Virus record (IMG/VR): IMGVR_UViG_3300017971_000185
Coordinates: 288,694 to 320,693 of that record
DNA from: a virus
Length of the DNA: 32,000 nt
Reading direction: 5' to 3' (one strand)
Shown here: in pieces, positions 1,527-27,990 of the stretch
Layout: the number at the start of each line of letters is the position of its first letter
Position numbering within the stretch: position 1 is the first letter of the stretch
Translations under genes and position numbers: made by a program
Notes under the pieces: generated by a model
The model's input: only the letters and a program-made list of their open reading frames with translations
The model's database searches: none
What the model was told of the DNA's origin: nothing

Positions 1527-1820
1527 CTACCGCCGGTAGTGCTCGCGAATCCCCGTTCGGATGGCCTTCTTCGTGGCCGCGTTCCACCTGTAAGAACGTG
1601 CATCCGCGTCGAGATTCATCAACGCATCACGCTCGCGCACCCCCTCCAACGTGCCCAGGAAATTCTCCACCGCAACAGCCTTGACCCCAGGCTGACGTGC
1701 AAGAGCCTGGATACGAGCGTCCGATAGACCCGCCTGACGGAGCAACGGAAGAACAGCATCCCGAATCTTGCCAGGGTTGGCATGAGCGAGACGGATGAGA
1801 CGTTTGCGAAGGTCAGACAT
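1527..1820 (-). CDS. LRK-NPG-LLPLL N-terminal-module family protein (97 aa)
   Basis: ATG at 1820. The N-terminus MSDLRKRLIRLAHANPGKIRDAVLPLL matches four other ORFs in the window. Confidence 0.7.
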   Translation of the reverse strand: MSDLRKRLIRLAHANPGKIRDAVLPLLRQAGLSDARIQALARQPGVKAVAVENFLGTLEGVRERDALMNLDADARSYRWNAATKKAIRTGIREHYRR

Positions 1821-1965
1821 CCTACTCGGACCAACCCTATAGCGTGAATACCGCCAAATGGGGTAAAACGTACCAGAGGATGAGCCGTGGTACTATGAGA
1901 CGACCGTACACGCTGGAGAATTGTCTTCAGACGAGCAAGAGATTGGTGCTCTGCGTGGGGGGAAG

Positions 1966-8055: not shown

Positions 8056-8595
8056 TTGAGTTTCACGTGGTCTAGACCGGTCGAGAACCCCTACGGGCTC
8101 CAGGTCCGCACGTCCAAGTGCGGTCGTGCGAAGATCGCGCGTCTTTCCAAGCCCGGATGGTCGTGGAACGAGTACCTACCGCTGCTCGACGGGGTGTTTC
8201 TGCCCAAGTACTACCGGCTCAAGGACGCCAAGGCAGCCTTGGAGGCCGCTGAGACGGGCCAGGAGCTTCCAGAAGCCGTTGCACCGAAGTGGATGCACGA
8301 GTACGAGGTCACGGAGACAAAGACTCAGAGCGAGGCTGAGGCGTCCTACAAGCGTGCGACGGAGTGGTTCCGGTCCAAGGTGCGGGCAGGGCGCCATGCG
8401 GCTAACCAGGGCGCCGACAAGGCGCAGAATCCCTACGAGGTTCTGGGGCTCGATGAGACAGCCTCGCTCGATGACTGCAAGGAGGCCGCCCGAAACCTCA
8501 TCTTGCTCTACCATCCCGACAGGGAGACCGGAGACAGGGACAAATTCGAGGCAGTGAAGGCAGCGATCGATGAGATCAAGGAGCTAGCATCGTGA
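8056..8595 (+). CDS. J-domain (DnaJ-like co-chaperone) protein, J domain C-terminal (179 aa)
   Basis: NPYEVLGLDETASLDDCKEAARNLILLYHPDRETGDRDKFEAVKAAIDEI matches the J-domain pattern, including HPD. TTG start lies 9 nt after GAGGAG. Confidence 0.8.
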   Translation: MSFTWSRPVENPYGLQVRTSKCGRAKIARLSKPGWSWNEYLPLLDGVFLPKYYRLKDAKAALEAAETGQELPEAVAPKWMHEYEVTETKTQSEAEASYKRATEWFRSKVRAGRHAANQGADKAQNPYEVLGLDETASLDDCKEAARNLILLYHPDRETGDRDKFEAVKAAIDEIKELAS

Positions 8596-10352: not shown

Positions 10353-10836
10353 ATGTCGATTCATCTATTGCAATTGTGTGACGCGAGTCGGTCGCAATCG
10401 TGATAGGTGCGCACGAAGTTGGTTTCGAGTCGATCGTCAAAACCGTTTAAAAAAGTCATCGGGGTGGGGCCCAAGGGCTTAAATTCCGAATCCGACCGAC
10501 ACCCAAAATCTCAAAGTGAACTTCCGGGAGCAGATCCCTAACTTCTTGAAATCATTGGGTTTTCTCCACAGGGCCCGTCTCTCTCCTCACGAAACCTGTT
10601 TCGATGGAGAGCGCGGGAGTCCCTGGGGCAGCTATTCTGTTAGTGCTTCGCACGAAAGGGTGTTTTCAAAGGGCCTCTGCGGGCAGTTTGTGCTACTCGT
10701 GCATCAAAAGGCCCCTGCGGGGCGGTTTCGTGCATATCTACCCTCATCAAAACGACCATCGACCTGTCACGGCTCTCCTCTGGGCGCTTTTCCCGCACTA
10801 GCTGGCCTATGGGGTCGGTGAGGGTAGGAGCGAGAG

Positions 10837-11478
10837 ATGGTCGACCCACGACAAGTCGAGGAGTGGAACAAGACGCTCGACAAGCGGATGGCCGACGCGA
10901 AGAGGATGTATGCGCATCTGCTGGAGCGGGGTGAGATTCCGGTTCAAGTGCGCAAGGGCGCGCCCGGTGGCAAGCCGGGCAAGAAGTTTACGATCAAGAT
11001 GCGGACGGGGATGGGGGCCAAGGGGTTCGGGGTGATCGAGCCGGGGAGGAAGAGGCCGGTGGAGGGGTACAAGATGCTGGGCAGGGACCGGATGCTCGAT
11101 TGGCTGTCTGGTCTGGAGCCGCAGCGAGGAACGAGAGTTGGAGCCATGGACGAGCTACGCAAGCAGGTCTTCAAGGTAGCGTATGAGAATCCTGGCGAAG
11201 TGAGGGAGGCCCTCTTGCCGCTGCTGAGGGAGGAAGGCGAGCCGATGGCGAAGCCGGGCACAGATTCCAAAAAAGCCGCTCAAGCATCTCACAAGGCGCT
11301 CATGGCGGCTTACGACTTGCTCACTGACGTGAAGGCGGAGATTCAAGTACTGCTCAATCCCCACGCGGGTGTAGATGACAAGACGAAGCAGCAGGCCAAG
11401 AAGGTGTTTGATTCAGTCAAGAAGATCGAATTGGCGATGAACACCACCCACACCCATCTAGGCAAGATGATTCGGTAG
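10837..11478 (+). CDS. LRK-NPG-LLPLL module family protein with the module internal (213 aa; alternative start 11146)
   Basis: ATG at 10837 follows AGGAG (10826-10830). MDELRKQVFKVAYENPGEVREALLPLL begins at residue 104. Confidence 0.65.
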   Translation: MVDPRQVEEWNKTLDKRMADAKRMYAHLLERGEIPVQVRKGAPGGKPGKKFTIKMRTGMGAKGFGVIEPGRKRPVEGYKMLGRDRMLDWLSGLEPQRGTRVGAMDELRKQVFKVAYENPGEVREALLPLLREEGEPMAKPGTDSKKAAQASHKALMAAYDLLTDVKAEIQVLLNPHAGVDDKTKQQAKKVFDSVKKIELAMNTTHTHLGKMIR

Positions 11479-11668
11479 GCACTGCGGGGGCGGAAGCCAC
11501 GAAGGCGATGAACAGAGACCTGACAGGATTTTTGAACGGGCCGCCAAGCCAGGTGCTCTGCGGCATCTGGCTTTCCGCCTTGACCAGACCGGAAGTCCAG
11601 GCTTGGACAGGCCGATCGAAAGATGGGGCCGCCGCGGTGCGGGTAATGCCGAAAGGCCGGAGTGAGAG

Positions 11669-12166
11669 ATGAACGATCTACGCAAGCAAGTCATCAAGGT
11701 CGCGTACGATAATCCTGGAGAGGTACGGGACGCATTGCTGCCGTTGTTGTTGAAGATTCGAGTTACGCCCGACAGCACTCTGGTGCGGAAGGCAGTCGGA
11801 GACCCGACTTCATCACGAACCTCGCCTGGACCGTGGCCGGAGTTGACGAATGACGACAGGAAGGTGCTCGGGGAAATTGCGTGGAAGTACAACAAGATCC
11901 TTGAGAGGCTCTCGGGTCAACTGTATGGCGAGTTACGGAAGCTGGCGGGTCAAGCAGAGAGACATCGGCGGGCGGTCTTGCAGCAGGCCAGACAATCAGA
12001 GGACCCGGTCACACAGCGGAAGATGAAGAGCTTGGCTGATGTGCTCAGGGACGTGGTCAAGCAGGCTACGGCTTTTGCACACAAGGATACGCTATGGAGG
12101 GATTTGAGCCAGGTAGGTCAAGCGGATTACGAAGCCAGGTGGATGCTCGATCCGTTCCACACGTGA
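11669..12166 (+). CDS. LRK-NPG-LLPLL N-terminal-module family protein (165 aa)
   Basis: MNDLRKQVIKVAYDNPGEVRDALLPLL at the N-terminus. An in-frame TGA lies 2 codons upstream. Confidence 0.7.
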   Translation: MNDLRKQVIKVAYDNPGEVRDALLPLLLKIRVTPDSTLVRKAVGDPTSSRTSPGPWPELTNDDRKVLGEIAWKYNKILERLSGQLYGELRKLAGQAERHRRAVLQQARQSEDPVTQRKMKSLADVLRDVVKQATAFAHKDTLWRDLSQVGQADYEARWMLDPFHT

Positions 12167-12173
12167 GGTAACC

Positions 12174-12515
12174 ATGTCCAATCTACGCAAGGAAGTCATC
12201 AAGCTGGCTCACGAAGCCGGGCCGGGAGAGCTACGGGACAAGCTGATGCCTCTCATCAAGGAGGGCATCTCGGATGAGGAGGCCCAGTCGGGCGCGATTC
12301 AGAAGCGCATGGCAACGGCTCACGCGATGTGTTGGGTGCTCCACAGCGTCCTTCAGGACATGCTGCCGCTCGGGGAGCACATTCCGAGGCAGTCAACACT
12401 CAAGCTCCAGAACGATGCTGTCAGGATGGGGAAGGTGTTGTGGGAGAAGATGGACTCGCAGGGGCGGAGTTGGGCCAAGCGCTATCGGGGCAAGATCGAG
12501 TCGGCGTTGCGGTAG
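12174..12515 (+). CDS. LRK-NPG-LLPLL N-terminal-module family protein (113 aa)
   Basis: MSNLRKEVIKLAHEAGPGELRDKLMPLI at the N-terminus. Lies 7 nt after the previous stop. Confidence 0.7.
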   Translation: MSNLRKEVIKLAHEAGPGELRDKLMPLIKEGISDEEAQSGAIQKRMATAHAMCWVLHSVLQDMLPLGEHIPRQSTLKLQNDAVRMGKVLWEKMDSQGRSWAKRYRGKIESALR

Positions 12516-16198: not shown

Positions 16199-16369
16199 GT
16201 GAAGATTCCGAAAACCGTCACCTACGTGTGTCGACATTGCCAGCAGCCGGTAGACGAGAGCGATCGATTTTGTCGTAACTGTGGGGCTCCGTGGGGCAGG
16301 GACGGGGTGCCTTATGATGAGCTTTACCGGATGGTCAAGTCCGATGAGCCCGACAGGGAAGGTGCATGA
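16199..16369 (+). CDS. small zinc-ribbon protein (56 aa)
   Basis: Below the cutoff. GTG at 16199. Sequence KIPKTVTYVCRHCQQPVDESDRFCRNCGAPW.... Its stop overlaps the next ATG (ATGA). Confidence 0.5.
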   Translation: MKIPKTVTYVCRHCQQPVDESDRFCRNCGAPWGRDGVPYDELYRMVKSDEPDREGA

Positions 16370-16650
16370 GGGCCGTCACCATAGCCCGAAAGCCCATGAA
16401 AGGAGCGATTGCTCAGAATGCGATCGAGTATGGGTGTGGAGCGCTCAACGTGGACGGTTGTAGAATCCCTGGTGTCAAGCAAGCAACAGCCGGTCGTAGA
16501 ACGGTGAGATGGGGTGTTGGGGAAGGCGGATGCTCGTATGAGAAGGGGACAGGAGCACTCTTTTCCAACGAGGGACGTTGGCCTGCCAATCTGATCCTGC
16601 TTTCGGGCGGGCGCACGGCGTCTCGATTCTTCAAACAGGTAAAACCATGA
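16366..16650 (+). CDS. orphan fragment homologous to the middle region of N4/N6 DNA methyltransferases (94 aa)
   Basis: IARKPMKGAIAQNAIEYGCGALNVDGCRI...GRWPANLIL...ASRFF follows the pattern (ARKP..tva.Nv...G.GaLNid.cRi...GRwPaNv....srFF) that lies between the DPPY and FxGxG motifs of phage-type MTases. Neither catalytic motif is present in this ORF. Confidence 0.6.
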   Translation: MRAVTIARKPMKGAIAQNAIEYGCGALNVDGCRIPGVKQATAGRRTVRWGVGEGGCSYEKGTGALFSNEGRWPANLILLSGGRTASRFFKQVKP

Positions 16651-20258: not shown

Positions 20259-20935
20259 TCCCAATCTAGGCGAACGGGATCGCCTGGCTTCCAGGTCGCC
20301 TGGTACGCTTTGAGAGCGGCGGGCCGTGGGTCTTTGGGGAAGTCGGGTTGATGTTCCGACTTCGCGAACAGATCTTTCCAAGAGATGCGGCCGAGGAGAG
20401 GCAGAGTTTCTGTCTTCGTAAGCGCAAAGGCTGGGTAGTGCCTTGTCTGTCGCACATCGTACCAGTGGGCTTTGAGATACTCCTGGCTGTTGTGCCAATA
20501 GATTTCGTCTTGATACCGAGGAGCGGGGGACATGGGTTTGCCATCTTTGTAGAGAAAGTCGGAGTGCAGCCCTGCGTGAAGTTGCCATTGACGATGACGT
20601 TGTTTGGCGAAAAGATCAGGCGTCAGTTGTCGAATGTCGAAAATTCGTGGCTGGTTTTCGTTCATCTTCTCATCGTACTTGCGTTCGATGCGGTCCCAGA
20701 TGTTCTCCGCGTCCTCCTCATCGAGCAGGTCATCGATCAAGGTTTCTAGCTCTCGCCAACGAGGCTTGAGATTCCAGCTTCCCATCTGCTCGGAGGCATC
20801 GAGGTAGACAGGCTGCCCGTCGAGAAGGCCGATTCCTGTGACCATCCCGTCGTAGCTTCCCTCGCGCCAGAGAAGGAGAATACGGCCGGGCTCGATGTCT
20901 GATCGGTCGAATGTCTCCTTTACGCTAGTCATCAT
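20255..20935 (-). CDS. hypothetical protein (226 aa)
   Basis: ORF track. Protein-like, W/D/E-rich. Confidence 0.7.
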   Translation of the reverse strand: MMTSVKETFDRSDIEPGRILLLWREGSYDGMVTGIGLLDGQPVYLDASEQMGSWNLKPRWRELETLIDDLLDEEDAENIWDRIERKYDEKMNENQPRIFDIRQLTPDLFAKQRHRQWQLHAGLHSDFLYKDGKPMSPAPRYQDEIYWHNSQEYLKAHWYDVRQTRHYPAFALTKTETLPLLGRISWKDLFAKSEHQPDFPKDPRPAALKAYQATWKPGDPVRLDWD

Positions 20936-21359
20936 TCTCCCTTGACTCAGCGATTTCGCTGTCGAGCAGGCTTTTGATCTGTTGAATGAGATCCTCGGGG
21001 ATGTCTATCTTTCGATACCTGTCTTGCCAGCCGTGAAATTCATGCATGTAGCTGTACGTGCGGCCTTCGCCGACTTCCATGTAGAAAGGATCTGAGTAGA
21101 TCCTTCCTAGAGTAGTCTCGACGTAGGGCATGGCGAGAATGCCGGCGTCGGAACAACAGCCGCATGTGCGTCTCCACTCAAACTTGTTGCACTGGCTGTT
21201 AACCGTTGCGCTCTTGTACCGGATCGTGCCCCACCGATCTCGCTGAAAAGTGAGATCTGGAAACTCTTGTCTGAGCCGGTGAAGGCGCTCGTGCTCGGTC
21301 AGTCTTTTGGTTGCCTCTGCCTTGAGAGACGCGAGGTGTTCTTCCATTGAGTCAGGCAC
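20925..21359 (-). CDS. hypothetical protein (144 aa)
   Basis: ORF track. Protein-like. Confidence 0.65.
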   Translation of the reverse strand: MPDSMEEHLASLKAEATKRLTEHERLHRLRQEFPDLTFQRDRWGTIRYKSATVNSQCNKFEWRRTCGCCSDAGILAMPYVETTLGRIYSDPFYMEVGEGRTYSYMHEFHGWQDRYRKIDIPEDLIQQIKSLLDSEIAESRENDD

Positions 21360-21693
21360 AGGCGGACTCCTCTTCTTCGCGGAGATACTGTTGTCCCACG
21401 CACTCGGCGAGTTTGCGGTTGTGCTCCTCGGCGTCCCACTCGGTACACAATTTCTCGCGGCCTGTTTCTCTCATCGATCTGTTGTAGTCGCGGACGTGAG
21501 CGGGAGGATTCTTGCGGTGCAATCGTCCTCTGCCCCAAGCCCGAAGTGTGTAGAGACCCGTCACCACGTCGGCGTAGCGCCAGGGTGAGTAGTTACGGGC
21601 CTTGCAGAATTTCGTCCACTCGTCCCAAGAGGTACGGTGGAGTTTCTCGGCTGCGTGTATGTCGTCTACGAGTTTCTTGATGTCGATTTGCAT
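21352..21693 (-). CDS. hypothetical protein (113 aa)
   Basis: ORF track. Protein-like. Confidence 0.65.
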   Translation of the reverse strand: MQIDIKKLVDDIHAAEKLHRTSWDEWTKFCKARNYSPWRYADVVTGLYTLRAWGRGRLHRKNPPAHVRDYNRSMRETGREKLCTEWDAEEHNRKLAECVGQQYLREEEESACA

Positions 21694-21996: not shown

Positions 21997-22013
21997 GTAG
22001 TGCGTCCAGAACG

Positions 22014-22088
22014 CGCGCTGAGAGGGGGTCGAACCCTCGACCTTCCGGGCGAATACCCCGGCTGCTCGGCCTACTGAGCTTCCAGCGC
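22014..22088 (-). tRNA. tRNA-like gene with 9-nt (or atypical 7-nt) anticodon loop; identity undetermined
   Basis: Minus-strand read: GCGCTGG AA GCTC AGTAGGCC GAGC A GCCGG GGTATTCGC CCGGA AGGTC GAGGG TTCGACC CCCTC TCAGCGC G. The acceptor, D and T arms are canonical. The anticodon region is not. Confidence 0.55.
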
Positions 22089-23450: not shown

Positions 23451-23626
23451 CAGTCGAGCACATCCAGAGCGCCGTGGTTCACTCCTGGCGCTGCACGGTC
23501 TGCAAGTACGAGTGGGATGTCTACGGAGGAGACCCCTACGACTACGACCCGGATGAGGAGCCGGTAGGTCCGGTGCCGGACAGTTGTCCTCGTTGCGGGC
23601 CTTGGCAGCCTACCGTCACTCGATAG
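23447..23626 (+). CDS. small zinc-ribbon protein (59 aa)
   Basis: Below the cutoff. ATGA overlap. Motifs CTVC...CPRC. Confidence 0.5.
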   Translation: MTVEHIQSAVVHSWRCTVCKYEWDVYGGDPYDYDPDEEPVGPVPDSCPRCGPWQPTVTR

Positions 23627-24305
23627 GAGCCCAGGCCCACTCTGCGGTAGCCGTGAATTTCGCCCGGAAGGGGAACGTGATCTGTCGCGTGTCTGCCCTG
23701 ATTCGTCTGGGAGGAACGGCGAGGTTGTCCCAATCGGGGAACAGGATGTCCCAAGCCCCTACGTTGCTCTCTTGAGCCATCCAGTCTTCCCAAGTCTCCT
23801 CATCATCGATCACGCGCCCTACTCTCGGCCACTCGGCGTGCTCGATGATCACCCAGGACCAGACCTTGGGGAAGTGCCGGTTGAGCACCATGGTCTCTAG
23901 CTTGCTCTCGATGATGAGAAAGTCACGTCCGCTTACCCGCGTCCGCATGGCTCGCCGCATGCTTTTCAGGGGGTAGCGGATCACTCCAGTCGTGTAGGCT
24001 GCGACGGTGCCCTTCACATCGCGTCGTTCGTGCTGAGCTTTTTCTGCGTCATCGGCAAGATTCTGAAAAGTGCTCTTGTCGGCTTGCGTCACTTGCCGAA
24101 CAATGTAGTTGTCTGCGTCGTTCGCCGCAGCGATCAGAGCCTTGACCAGCTTGGGAAGGATGGTTCGCGCCTGATCTTCGAATACTTCTTTCGCGAGCGA
24201 CTGGAGCGCCGAAGGAGGGGCTGCCTTCTTGAGCAAAGGAAGCAAGCCTTCCCGAAGTTGCGGTTGTTGCTGGGCGAGCCGGAGAATGCTGCGTCGTAGG
24301 CTCAT
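23616..24305 (-). CDS. LRK-NPG-LLPLL N-terminal-module family protein, divergent member (229 aa)
   Basis: MSLRRSILRLAQQQPQLREGLLPLL at the N-terminus. Confidence 0.7.
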   Translation of the reverse strand: MSLRRSILRLAQQQPQLREGLLPLLKKAAPPSALQSLAKEVFEDQARTILPKLVKALIAAANDADNYIVRQVTQADKSTFQNLADDAEKAQHERRDVKGTVAAYTTGVIRYPLKSMRRAMRTRVSGRDFLIIESKLETMVLNRHFPKVWSWVIIEHAEWPRVGRVIDDEETWEDWMAQESNVGAWDILFPDWDNLAVPPRRIRADTRQITFPFRAKFTATAEWAWAPIE

Positions 24306-24370
24306 GGTCCTACTTCACGATCTTCCATAGCCTACCTATCGAGAGGCTGTTTGGGGTAAGGTGTTCTATC

Positions 24371-24588: not shown

Positions 24589-25008
24589 ATGAGAGATGCG
24601 TGGGACGTGGAGGGCGAGGAGTCCGTAGCTCTCGTGAAGTGGTGTGACAAGCGGAAGTGCCTCCGAATCGGCGTACCACAAGGCGGCTGCCGAGGAGCTA
24701 GCGGTGCAAACGGGAGAGCAGAAACCCCGATAACGCTCGGGGCCGGCGGCCCGTCTCTACCCGTTTGCGAGGTCGGCTTTGGACGGAGCCGAGGTCAACC
24801 TATCCTCGCTCCAGTATACCCTTGCATTTGCTCAGGGAGTCGTGTAGAAGGTGATCAGAGGTCAACATGTTCATCCTCAGCCGTCGAATATCCAAGCCTG
24901 TCGCCCCCGTTCCCAGCGGTATGGGTGTCGTCGTCGTGCGCTTGGCGTTTGACAGGCGACGGTGAACGCCAGGCTCAAGGACCGCGGAACGGGCGTATAG
25001 GCCCGTAG
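24589..25008 (+). pseudogene. possible degenerate VRR-NUC-like nuclease ORF
   Basis: MRDAWDVEGEESVALVKWCDKRKCLRIGVPQGGCRG...LGAGGPSLPVCEVGFGRSRGQP loosely follows the VRR-NUC pattern (E..q.alv.w......ipNGG.R....G...G.PDl....iEvK...g.ls..Q). It has PSL for PDL and EVG for E-x-K. The tail is S/C/R-rich and runs into the tRNA. Confidence 0.25.
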
Positions 25009-25072
25009 CTCAGTCGGTTAGAGCGTGGGGCTCATAACCCCGTGGTCCTCGGTTCAATCCCGAGCGGGCCTA
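24999..25072 (+). tRNA. tRNA with CAT anticodon (Met or lysidine-dependent Ile2)
   Basis: AGGCCCG TA GCTC AGTCGGTTA GAGC G TGGGG CTCATAA CCCCG TGGTC CTCGG TTCAATC CCGAG CGGGCCT A. Full cloverleaf. No encoded CCA. Confidence 0.85.
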
Positions 25073-25087
25073 CGAAAAGCATTCAAG

Positions 25088-25204: not shown

Positions 25205-25477
25205 ATGAAGAGACGCACGTTCATAGGCAGCCTGTTCGCGGCCCTTGGAGCGATCTGCTTCCCTTGGAAGAGACGCAAGCGCAAGAAGTCTCTAGAGGAG
25301 ATCAAGCAGGAGATCCTCATGGAGTACTTTCGTTCTCCTCAAGCACGAGGGAAACTGGCTGTAGGTATGGCTTTCCCTCTCCGAATGCGTCGCAACTATG
25401 CAGAGATTGGCAAGAGGATCTTTCTTGTGGAGGAATTGCCATCGGGCGCTCTCCCCTTCTACGACAGGGAGCCATGA
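25205..25477 (+). CDS. small protein with twin-arginine-like N-terminus (90 aa)
   Basis: AAGGAG lies 4 nt before the ATG. MKRRTFIGSLFAALGAICFPW is followed by KRRKRKK. Confidence 0.55.
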   Translation: MKRRTFIGSLFAALGAICFPWKRRKRKKSLEEIKQEILMEYFRSPQARGKLAVGMAFPLRMRRNYAEIGKRIFLVEELPSGALPFYDREP

Positions 25478-25674
25478 AAGAGCACTGTACCAGACATCTC
25501 CGAAAAGGGATCAAGAAGCCAGCCGTGTACATCCTCGAAGGCGGGCTATGCGAGACTTGTTGGATCGATTGGTGGATCGAAGGACTGCACATCGAGAACC
25601 CGAGAGAACGAGCCAAAGTACGTCGAGAGACAAAAGCTGCCTTAAGGAGAAGACGCAAGCGAAAGGCCGGGTAG
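25474..25674 (+). CDS. small basic Cys-containing protein (66 aa)
   Basis: ATG at 25474 is in an ATGA overlap. MKEHCTRHLRKGIKKPAVYILEGGLCETCW.... The last 10 nt overlap tRNA-Val. Confidence 0.5.
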   Translation: MKEHCTRHLRKGIKKPAVYILEGGLCETCWIDWWIEGLHIENPRERAKVRRETKAALRRRRKRKAG

Positions 25675-25741
25675 CTCAGATGGTTAGAGCACCATCCCGA
25701 CACGGTGGGGGTCCTCGGTTCGATCCCGAGCCCGGTCACCA
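25665..25741 (+). tRNA. tRNA-Val (GAC), CCA encoded, C at position 33
   Basis: GGCCGGG TA GCTC AGATGGTTA GAGC A CCATC CCGACAC GGTGG GGGTC CTCGG TTCGATC CCGAG CCCGGTC A CCA. Confidence 0.8.
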
Positions 25742-26653: not shown

Positions 26654-26870
26654 AGAAGTGCTACGACAGCGCGTTCAAGGTGCCATCCGCGAGGAGATTC
26701 GGTTGCGCATAGTATGGGAAAATGCGGTAGAGCGTGCCAAGACAGGCGCTCCTGGTGCGCGGCATGCCGAAGAGGACGCTGCGTATGCCCTCGGCCTAGC
26801 TCGCAAACAAGTGAACGAGCAAATGCGGCAGTTGATGGAGCACTGTCGCCGGAGGTACGGATACGGCTAG
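26631..26870 (+). CDS. hypothetical small protein (79 aa from ATG 26631)
   Basis: ORF track 26589..26870. MKQTLTTEEVLRQRVQGAIREEIRLRIVWEN.... Confidence 0.5.
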   Translation: MKQTLTTEEVLRQRVQGAIREEIRLRIVWENAVERAKTGAPGARHAEEDAAYALGLARKQVNEQMRQLMEHCRRRYGYG

Positions 26871-27796
26871 TAGAGGTTTCTGATCTCAGGCGCAGCCGTG
26901 AACAGGCGGCAATGCGTTCCCGGTGTATAGTACCGTAACTGCAAACCGTTGCGAGCTAGTGCATGGTGGACGGGAGGATCCGAGATGCGCGTCGTGTTCT
27001 GCTGACAGGCGAACGTCGTTGTCCACGTTGCGTTGAAGGACGGGATGTACTCGTAAGCGGTTCGCGTCACACGGAAGGCTGAGCGGATGGTCTTGATGAT
27101 TTCGACGTGGTGAGCATCGAGGGGACCGCTCAGGCGGATGCCTCCTGTCTGTGCGGCAAAGATGCCTCTGTCACGCAGTTTCCCGCCAATGGCCGAGAAG
27201 AAGTCCTTGGTGAACAACCGCTCAGAGAGATTGTTGCTGTCGCCCGTGTCATCGTAGGGCTCAGTGAGATCGGAGATGATCACGTTCCAAGTCTGGTTCT
27301 CGTTGAGCACAGTGGACGCGTCGGAGATGCGGACGGTAACGCGCTCGTCCTCGAATGCGCCGTGTGTCCATTCGGGAAAGAGCACCTTGAAGGTCTCGAT
27401 CATGTCTTCATCGATCTCGACCAAGCAGACTTCTTTCACGTCGGGCCACTTGAGCACTTCGCGGAGAGCACAGCCATCGCCGCCACCGAGGATGAGCACA
27501 CGCCCGATGTTCTGGGCCATGACCATGGCCGGATGCACGAGCATGTCGTGGTAGATATACTCGTCACTCTCCGCAACCTGGATGCGCCCGTCTAGAATCA
27601 GAGTGCGTCCGAGGTCCGCGAAGTCTGCTAGCTGGATGAGTTGGTACTCGCTTTGCTTTTCGTAGAGGAGATCGCGGATACCCCACAGAGCGAAGAAGGA
27701 TTCGCTCTCTGCCTCAAGAAACCAGCGCGGCTGTCGAGTCTCCAGCAAGTGCGGCAGAGATTCCAACGGACTAAAGATTCGGTTGGCTGGTATCAC
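26867..27796 (-). CDS. spermidine synthase-like (polyamine aminopropyltransferase fold) protein
   Basis: VLILGGGDGCALREVLKW, VCLVEIDEDMIE and VIISDLTEP match the GGGDGG / (V/I)EID / D-x-x-(D/E)P motifs of the spermidine synthase family. GTG at 27796 is in a GTGA overlap downstream of AAGGAGG. Confidence 0.8.
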   Translation of the reverse strand: MIPANRIFSPLESLPHLLETRQPRWFLEAESESFFALWGIRDLLYEKQSEYQLIQLADFADLGRTLILDGRIQVAESDEYIYHDMLVHPAMVMAQNIGRVLILGGGDGCALREVLKWPDVKEVCLVEIDEDMIETFKVLFPEWTHGAFEDERVTVRISDASTVLNENQTWNVIISDLTEPYDDTGDSNNLSERLFTKDFFSAIGGKLRDRGIFAAQTGGIRLSGPLDAHHVEIIKTIRSAFRVTRTAYEYIPSFNATWTTTFACQQNTTRISDPPVHHALARNGLQLRYYTPGTHCRLFTAAPEIRNLY

Positions 27797-27990
27797 CAAC
27801 GGAGTCCCTCCTTGCGCCGTTGTTCTTGCTCCTCGCAGACGCTCCGAAGCTGGCTCCAATTGCGGATGACGTTGAGATCGTCCAGGGCTTCTTTGGTTTC
27901 CTGGGTCATCGTGGCTTGGAAAGGCAGCCGATCGTCGTTGCGGAAGCTCTCGCTCGCGTAGTTGAAGGTCGTGATGTTTTGCCGTCTCAC
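27793..27990 (-). CDS. hypothetical small protein (65 aa)
   Basis: ORF track (GTG start). Coupled to the downstream spermidine-synthase-like gene. Confidence 0.5.
   Translation of the reverse strand: MRRQNITTFNYASESFRNDDRLPFQATMTQETKEALDDLNVIRNWSQLRSVCEEQEQRRKEGLRW

Follow-up and report, generated by a model that had tools for sequence, protein, structure and literature searches.

The capsid-targeting sequence (CTS) of phage T4 is about 10 residues long, strictly N-terminal, and removed by the prohead protease. The T4 internal proteins that carry it are diverse and have it as their only common feature; the CTS is portable and directs proteins to the prohead for injection (PMC3012670). In phage P22, the helix-turn-helix of the scaffold protein binds the coat protein and loads fused cargo (10.1101/2022.12.13.520362; PMC9962691). 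Here, we describe a peptide module of about 27 amino acids (aa) that is found in five proteins encoded on a 32,000-nucleotide (nt) stretch of viral DNA, positions 288,694 to 320,693 of the IMG/VR virus record IMGVR_UViG_3300017971_000185. This whole stretch is called the window in the following, and all its coordinates are counted from its first letter. The module is attached to different proteins in different phages, and from its sequence features we consider it likely to be a docking peptide for a common partner.

Five proteins of the window share one module

An interpretation made from the letters of the window and without database searches (the sequence-only reading) had pointed to five proteins with a common peptide of about 27 aa, and all five open reading frames (ORFs) are present at the following coordinates. 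Gene A (1527-1820, minus strand) encodes 97 aa, of which residues 1-29 (nt 1734-1820) form the module; a short linker connects it to a 60-residue cargo with four predicted helices. Genes B, C and D lie in tandem on the plus strand. B (10837-11478, 213 aa) starts with a conserved N-terminal domain (N-domain) of 103 aa; its module occupies residues 104-132 (nt 11146-11232) and is joined by a Pro/Gly-rich linker to a helical tail of 80 aa. C (11669-12166, 165 aa) starts with the module (residues 1-29, nt 11669-11755), which is separated from the cargo by a linker, and D (12174-12515, 113 aa) carries it at residues 1-30 (nt 12174-12263), with a turn that is two residues longer and reads EAGPGEL. 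Gene E (23616-24305, minus strand, 229 aa) has the module at residues 1-27 (nt 24225-24305), followed by a linker and a cargo of 200 aa.

A profile built from the five sequences matched A-E alone among 910 six-frame segments of the window (E = 8e-21 to 7e-14; next best 0.28). As this test is circular, the profile was rebuilt from module instances outside the window, namely 270 instances from other metagenomic proteins with the window's own excluded. This independent profile recovered exactly A-E (E = 1.1e-13, 1.3e-12, 4.4e-12, 1.1e-11 and 1.1e-9; next best 0.35). The adjoining parts of the parent contig, 8.8 kb on the left and 7.5 kb on the right of the window, contain no additional module copy.

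BLASTP between pairs of the five proteins aligned the first 27-64 residues alone (E = 2e-13 to 1e-3). The DNA identity of the modules is 0.51-0.76, and between 31 and 83% of the identical residues of a pair are encoded by different codons. The peptide is thus the conserved entity and not the DNA, just as had been proposed. The turn has the canonical length in E, one additional residue in A, B and C, and two in D. Since three turn lengths coexist in the window, the conserved surfaces should be the two helices that flank it. The EAGPGEL variant of D also occurs in the proteins P0086 and P0107, where it is attached to other cargoes. In each of the five window proteins, the module is succeeded by a stretch rich in Gly, Pro, Ser and Glu. 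This reads EEGEPMAKPGTD in B and AAPPSA in E, and in C it comprises about 35 residues rich in Pro, Ser and Thr. Such a stretch suggests that the module is a tethered, independent unit.

The 103 residues of B that precede Met-104 (codon at 11146) are 84% identical and 91% similar to residues 24-124 of P0069, a related metagenomic protein with an extra segment before the module and no Met immediately in front of it. The 213-aa form of B is also predicted by the gene callers on the parent contigs. Because the upstream residues are conserved in P0069 and the gene callers agree, B is a 213-aa protein with an internal module. The description of the module as an N-terminal leader therefore applies to A, C, D and E; in B it is internal, and elsewhere it is also found at the C-terminus or in two to five copies per protein.

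Size, architecture and conservation of the module family

When 1.84 billion representative proteins were scanned in full with the hidden Markov model (HMM) of the five sequences, 1,975 of them matched at E <= 1e-3 and 132 at E <= 1e-10. The HMM search that the sequence-only reading had called for thus gives about 1,975 clusters. With a family of this size and several copies per phage contig, the module is not a peculiarity of this one element. Two other types of search returned less: a word-indexed search with a 55-sequence module alignment, a very short query, gave one match from 51 candidates, and a degenerate DNA pattern for the NPG[EK][VI]R variant of the window type gave two stretches in IMG/VR and four in JGI.

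The consensus of 308 module instances is [KM][SA]SLR[KS]xLIRLAHENPELRxxLLPLLKxA. In this crude stack the strongest positions are L4, R5, A12, P16, R19, L23, P24 and L25, each conserved in 68-84% of the instances, and no conserved residue was found past K27. Among the best 150 of the 1,975 matches, 29 proteins have a single copy and 120 have two to five, a list that is biased to multi-copy proteins since their scores add up. In these 150 matches, 120 copies sit at the very start of the protein, 47 at its very end, and 141 are internal. Multi-module proteins often carry copies at both ends or in direct tandem (e.g. residues 1-31 and 35-65), and the copies are separated by low-complexity linkers rich in Lys, Glu and Asp. 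In 52 phage loci, the module immediately follows the start Met in 65 of 95 instances. The local clustering of module genes that had been noted for B, C and D is found elsewhere as well, as 21 of 50 IMG/VR loci of 6 kb contain at least two module genes.

Modules of phages spanning a GC content of 39-67% are about 66% identical. In the E family, two homologue clusters are about 85-90% identical over approximately the first 36 columns vs 51-54% overall. The module is more strongly conserved than its cargoes in the phages compared. We also considered concerted evolution within genomes, which would point to co-evolution with a genome-specific partner. This was not supported: module identity is 0.72 within and 0.66 between genomes, and the nearest neighbour is from the same genome for 22 of 90 modules in what is a biased sample.

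In other phages, further short motifs recur behind the module. One of them, [EK]Fx[ST]x[DE]..[YH][LK]xxHPxA[DK]xxxHx[VI], directly follows a module in 17 of its 18 occurrences; the second is AGCEKLPEGPMRDNCEKKK. Carriers of the two motifs are, in one group, L019, L034, L044, L050, P0001, P0004, P0010 and others and, in the other, L007/P0009, P0024, P0026, P0056 and P0110. The window contains neither motif. Such recurrent motifs suggest a beads-on-a-string peptide system.

Cargo parts and portability

The module-free remainders of A-E gave no match among the five better than E = 0.7 in an all-against-all BLASTP comparison, and iterated jackhmmer searches of the remainders against about 9,500 segments of related phages gave no cross-matches. 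Where family profiles exist, hhalign assigned a probability of 0.2% to the pairing of the E family with the A family, and the same to that of the E family with the N-domain of B; the B tail, C and D have no homologues and were compared as single sequences only. A likeness between the cargo of E and the N-domain of B (BLAST E = 0.01 with composition correction off) was confirmed by neither jackhmmer nor hhalign. These results bear out the earlier statement that no similarity is left past the LLPLL motif, and the profile-profile comparison suggested at the time revealed no homologous C-terminal parts among the families with profiles.

The cargo of A (residues 32-97; nt 1527-1727, minus strand) is a conserved domain of about 60 residues that is also present in 10 other protein clusters and in LR745208, a phage genome described below. 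All of these relatives (10/10 clusters and the LR745208 ORF) are free of the module: five clusters and the LR745208 ORF consist of little else than this domain, four clusters have a differing Lys/Arg-rich N-terminal extension, and one has a C-terminal extension. They are encoded on large metagenomic contigs and have the consensus IAVENFLGT...ALMNLDADARSYRWN..T.NAIR.GI.EHF. A Foldseek search of the PDB with the model of A gave no significant neighbour (best E 2.2). In P0069, the N-domain of B is combined with an insert, with the module and with a cargo shared with P0043, a small protein made up of module and cargo; by its sequence, domains have been shuffled around the module in this case.

Module proteins from IMG/VR carry the Pfam domains RNA_ligase (1e-27), Pentapeptide (1e-22), DUF2958 (5e-19), ART-PolyVal (4e-12) and WGR (3e-7), and two of them have HExxH peptidase-like domains as judged by eye. 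A ParB-like nuclease is suggested by a weak match in two multi-module proteins (ParBc_2, E = 0.03). When the modules were masked in 240 module proteins, the remaining sequences fell into 92 cargo clusters, 71 of which were singletons. The module is portable: it is fused to cargoes of unrelated Pfam families, is absent from the relatives of the A cargo and is shuffled in P0069, and the sequence-only reading was right on this point.

Predicted structure of the module

AlphaFold2 (AF2) models the module as two helices of 10-14 residues joined at an N-P-(E/G) turn, with residues 3-13 and 15-25 in P0009 (predicted local distance difference test score, pLDDT, of about 80) and residues 3-14 and 16-29 in A. 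The helices are predicted at pLDDT values of 52-84. The module is thus predicted to form a helical hairpin. In the model of A, the cargo is a confident four-helix domain (pLDDT > 90) and the module is separate from it, with a low-confidence packing on the cargo. For P0009, which has two modules, the model gave no indication of the two hairpins packing on each other (predicted template modelling score, pTM, of 0.28), which is weak evidence as it comes from a single-sequence model.

Distribution among viral and cellular sequences

All 10 module clusters that were sampled are metagenomic, and their gene contexts look viral, with homing endonucleases, Cpn10, ThiF and ART-PolyVal on a 530-kb contig and SET and PLD on a 102-kb contig. 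IMG/VR and GTDB were scanned with a synthetic double consensus as the query. In IMG/VR there were 50 confirmed module loci, on contigs of up to 485, 289, 266, 222 and 167 kb and with several copies per contig. In GTDB, the 185,579 bacterial and archaeal species genomes gave 600 pattern matches with this query, and none of them was confirmed. When 50,697 GenBank phage records were searched with two multi-module queries, LR745208 was the sole match. In the scans made, the module is confined to viral and metagenomic sequence, where it occurs in a broad group of large and huge tailed phages.

LR745208 is the complete, curated 485-kb genome of an uncultured phage and contains 11 scattered module copies, 10 of which come right after the start codon (an example of the peptide is MTTLRSKLIRLAHENPALRPQLLPLLKEAG). 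With TerL, portal, prohead protease and an HK97-type major head protein (phrog_2522, E = 2e-47), it is a tailed phage. The window and LR745208 have few detectable genes in common, and a megablast search with 15 kb of the window gave no match among GenBank phages. Protein C is encoded on 23 assembled contigs, 17 of which are 0.2-1 Mb in size (for example ENA ERZ27256778 k141_1249434 with 527,654 bp and JGI Ga0310068_1000001 with 497,091 bp). The window itself contains four tRNA genes, genes for two sigma-like proteins, a J-domain protein, a spermidine synthase and an M23 peptidase, and many small ORFs without a family. We regard it as a section of a huge phage genome of about 0.5 Mb; the hallmark genes were verified in LR745208, not in the window.

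The module could not be placed in a named family by the sequence-only reading, and the databases did not change this. The five window proteins gave no match to the module in Pfam-A 2025 or PHROGs v4 (nothing below E = 0.1), 10 multi-module proteins gave nothing relevant in NCBIfam 20.0, and a PDB profile search with the module reached a best E of 0.35. Literature searches with peptide strings of the module and for huge-phage motifs found nothing relevant.

Gene neighbourhood and a promoter-like element

On the minus strand of LR745208, the gene order is TerL, portal (406172-407866), prohead protease (399989-401413), an E/K-rich scaffold-like protein of 422 aa (398706-399974), a module protein of 134 aa (398171-398575), a protein of 228 aa and the major head protein (396418-397293). 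Another module gene lies 5.5 kb further along. In L051, an independent phage, the portal gene is immediately followed by two module genes. Both phages appear to have intein or LAGLIDADG homing-endonuclease insertions in this region, in the portal gene of L051 (19-2802) and in a 1,229-aa ORF adjacent to the head genes of LR745208 (392525-396214).

The window contains a 90-aa ORF (25205-25477, plus strand) between tRNA-Met (24999-25073) and tRNA-Val (25665-25741), and the same ORF is predicted as a gene on the parent contig. Over residues 33-90 it shares 50% identity with the N-arm region (residues 8-65) of the LR745208 major head protein, and it matches the phrog_2522 family ‘major head protein’ with E = 2e-4; the remainder of the head protein is absent from the window. 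Judging from this match, the ORF could be a stand-alone or truncated copy of the N-arm of a capsid protein. In P22, the N-arm of the coat protein is the part that binds the scaffold, and by analogy the ORF might be relevant to the partner of the module.

A promoter-like CTATGG hexamer is found at 10807-10812 (plus strand), 30 nt upstream of B, and equivalent hexamers are located at 1837-1842 (minus strand) before A, at 12092-12097 (plus strand) before D, and at 24325-24330 (minus strand) before E. These CTATRG sequences, 22-82 nt upstream of their genes, make up four of the 14 occurrences in the window. In LR745208, [GC]CTAT is present at -32 to -14 before five of 10 module genes vs 37 of 592 genes overall (Fisher P = 1.5e-4). 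CTATRG is probably a promoter element of one transcription class.

Proposed function and alternative explanations

A docking function is the best explanation for the finding of a short, strongly constrained and portable hairpin on many unrelated proteins of one virus, and we consider it likely. The module, tethered by linkers to these proteins, would bring all of them to a single common binding partner. This partner might be located in the interior of the assembling procapsid, with the HK97-type major head protein, the scaffold or the portal as candidates; the tagged proteins would be packaged and later delivered with the DNA. The proteins with two to five modules and charged low-complexity linkers that are found in other phages could then serve, on this surface, as multivalent scaffolds or as cross-linkers. 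The procapsid is the destination that we favour, as a tentative choice. It is favoured by the gene order in LR745208, the portal neighbours in L051, the ART-PolyVal cargo and the T4 and P22 precedents. ART-PolyVal belongs to a repertoire that has been predicted to be packaged into the head and injected (Iyer et al. 2017, PMC5512222).

Several observations weigh against a docking peptide that leads into the procapsid. Most module genes, including all five in the window, are located away from head genes, and two of 11 LR745208 copies within 24 kb of the head cluster would be expected with a chance probability of about 0.1. There is no conserved cleavage motif after the module (L-K-E at positions 26-28 occurs in about 16% of the 308 instances), and neither P22 gp8 nor any PDB chain resembles the module in sequence. 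No function could be recognised for the cargoes of the window proteins (none below E = 0.1 in Pfam and PHROGs; A also by Foldseek), and the two module-bearing queries matched no cultured phage in the GenBank phage collection. The CTAT motif also precedes helicase, RNA-ligase, methyltransferase and head-closure-like genes; since genes of DNA metabolism and of the head occur together in this regulon, it gives no decision between early and late expression of the module genes. Finally, a self-associating network would account just as well for multi-copy proteins that have modules at both termini.

In such a network, the hairpins would act as stickers that bind each other, for example as two hairpins forming a four-helix bundle. 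Multi-module proteins would give rise to a network or condensate, for instance a factory for replication or assembly, with single-module proteins as its clients. This agrees with the 120 of 150 top matches that have two to five modules, typically at both termini or in tandem and with K/E/D-rich linkers in between, with the further motifs strung behind modules like beads, and with a hairpin that is amphipathic and too small to fold stably alone. However, the top-150 list favours multi-copy proteins by construction, neither LR745208 with its 11 modules nor the window encodes a multi-module protein that could serve as a module-built scaffold, and the hairpins of P0009 gave no indication of packing together in the (weak) single-sequence model. 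We thus regard self-association as unlikely. Less probable still is that the five genes are ordinary paralogues, i.e. descendants of one duplicated gene that lost all recognisable similarity in their C-terminal parts but each retained the N-terminus for structural reasons of its own. The adjacent position of B, C and D on one strand and the identity of the B and C modules (81% in protein, 76% in DNA) would fit a recent duplication, and B, C and D lack homologues deep enough for profile-profile comparison. Wherever comparison was possible, by BLASTP, jackhmmer, hhalign and the relatives of the A cargo, this explanation was rejected: the A cargo is an independent family without the module in 10/10 relatives, hhalign gave 0.2% for the families that could be profiled, AF2 models module and A cargo as separate units, cargoes elsewhere come from unrelated Pfam families, and the module is also internal, C-terminal and multi-copy. 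We consider a common origin of the whole proteins highly improbable.

A docking peptide could also have its target in the host, so that many phage proteins are brought to one conserved machine such as DnaK/Hsp70, RNA polymerase or the ribosome. A universally conserved target would fit a module that is conserved across phages with GC contents of 39-67%, which implies different hosts. The LIRLA and LLPLL halves with their flanking Arg and Lys residues resemble, in sequence, the binding cores of Hsp70 (the Rudiger-type DnaK motif). A J-domain (DnaJ) gene is located at 8056-8595 (plus strand), 2.2 kb upstream of B, and in LR745208 a J-domain gene (20673-21650, plus strand) adjoins a module gene that starts at 20732 (minus strand). 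On the other hand, the other 50 loci have no J-domain gene in the vicinity of their module genes, no module was confirmed in cellular genomes, so that there is no endogenous class of ligands to mimic, and the invariant Pro16, Pro24, Ala12, Arg5 and Arg19 suggest a defined fold and not an extended chaperone substrate. A host hub is therefore quite improbable in our view, and we give very little credence to a membrane or secretion signal or a nucleic-acid-binding helix-turn-helix. The start of E, SLRRSILRL, is superficially Tat-like, the net charge of the module is about +2 to +3, and the linkers of multi-module proteins are rich in Lys. A Sec or Tat signal peptide was nevertheless rejected, because charged residues, conserved acidic ones among them, occur throughout the consensus, there is no h-region (no hydrophobic core of at least 12 residues), and the module is also internal and C-terminal. 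Two helices of 10 residues without a third are unlike known DNA-binding helix-turn-helix domains, and neither Pfam nor the PDB gave a match.

The docking peptide thus remains our preferred reading. In a bolder form, which we regard as rather doubtful, the module would be the address label of an unrecognised protein-sorting system in uncultured huge phages. It would mark the set of proteins that is loaded into the giant capsid or into an assembly compartment built by the phage, and its multivalent versions would be a scaffold that helps to organise very large capsids. What is known of huge phages (200-700 kb) comes almost entirely from metagenomes, and no function has been assigned to the majority of their genes. 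If the module is the label of such a sorting system, sequence alone could reveal which effectors hundreds of uncultured megaphages package and inject. As a sorting or docking signal in general, it would allow proteins sent to one destination, possibly the injected effector set, to be listed from sequence only, would point to an equally conserved partner protein, and would offer a compact 27-residue tag for loading cargo into large capsids. Whatever the destination, a large family of protein modules is missing from current domain databases, one that has many copies per genome and recognisable host-manipulating enzymes among its carriers.

Other features of the window

The spermidine synthase gene (26867-27859, minus strand; Spermine_synth, E = 1.5e-36) is an auxiliary metabolic gene in a phage-like region. 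A tRNA-Asn gene (22013-22088, minus strand) was predicted by ARAGORN with the unusual anticodon ATT, i.e. an A at position 34. An ORF of 94 aa (16366-16650, plus strand) matches only an internal piece of DNA-methyltransferase-like ORFs of 515-543 aa in LR745208 (78% over 32 residues), and from this match it may be a gene fragment or a split gene.

Comparison with known systems

The sequence-only reading had compared the module to the T4 CTS. Its logic fits, and the locations near head clusters are circumstantial evidence in the same direction, while length, position and the lack of a cleavage site do not agree. As with the CTS of IPI, IPII, IPIII and Alt, a short peptide is the sole common part of diverse, fast-evolving and mostly small proteins. 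The sizes of the window proteins (97-229 aa) and their tandem order also resemble the internal protein loci of T-even phages. In contrast to the CTS, the module has 27 residues, is predicted to be a helix-turn-helix, occurs internally, C-terminally and in multiple copies, and has neither a cleavage motif nor sequence similarity to it. We therefore rejected it as a member of the T4-type CTS, which is a strictly N-terminal sequence of about 10-20 residues with an L/I-x-E site; the module departs from both features. The P22 scaffold protein gp8 docks with a small helical hairpin on an HK97-fold coat inside the procapsid, and the module is likewise basic and a predicted hairpin, as in P22-type scaffold domains of about 30-40 residues. 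The hairpin of gp8 is present as a single copy in one dedicated scaffold protein, whereas the module is spread over many genes.

Encapsulation peptides of encapsulins and microcompartments are short, terminal (N or C), repeatable, and bind the inner face of the shell, which in encapsulins has the HK97 fold. They tag unrelated cargo proteins as the module does. However, they are cellular and have shorter, unrelated motifs, whereas the module is viral or metagenomic, with none confirmed in the GTDB scan. Condensate organelles also have shared targeting motifs; one of them, the Rubisco-binding motif of the pyrenoid, is a short helical motif on unrelated proteins, with multivalent linker proteins that contain disordered spacers, to which the multi-module proteins with their several spaced copies are similar. 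The pyrenoid system is eukaryotic and unrelated in sequence, and we know of no condensate in these phages. Polyvalent and MuF-fused effectors (PMC5512222) overlap with the module proteins in repertoire (ART-PolyVal and HExxH; ParB-like weakly, E = 0.03), and the fate proposed for both is the same, packaging in the head and co-injection. They combine many effector domains in one giant polypeptide with a MuF- or portal-associated handle, whereas the module is spread over separate, mostly small proteins.

The module belongs to none of these systems; its logic is that of the CTS, and its shape is like that of the P22 scaffold helix-turn-helix or of an encapsulin peptide. It is a virus-specific family that has not been described in domain databases, of a kind that is already known, the shared targeting or docking peptide.

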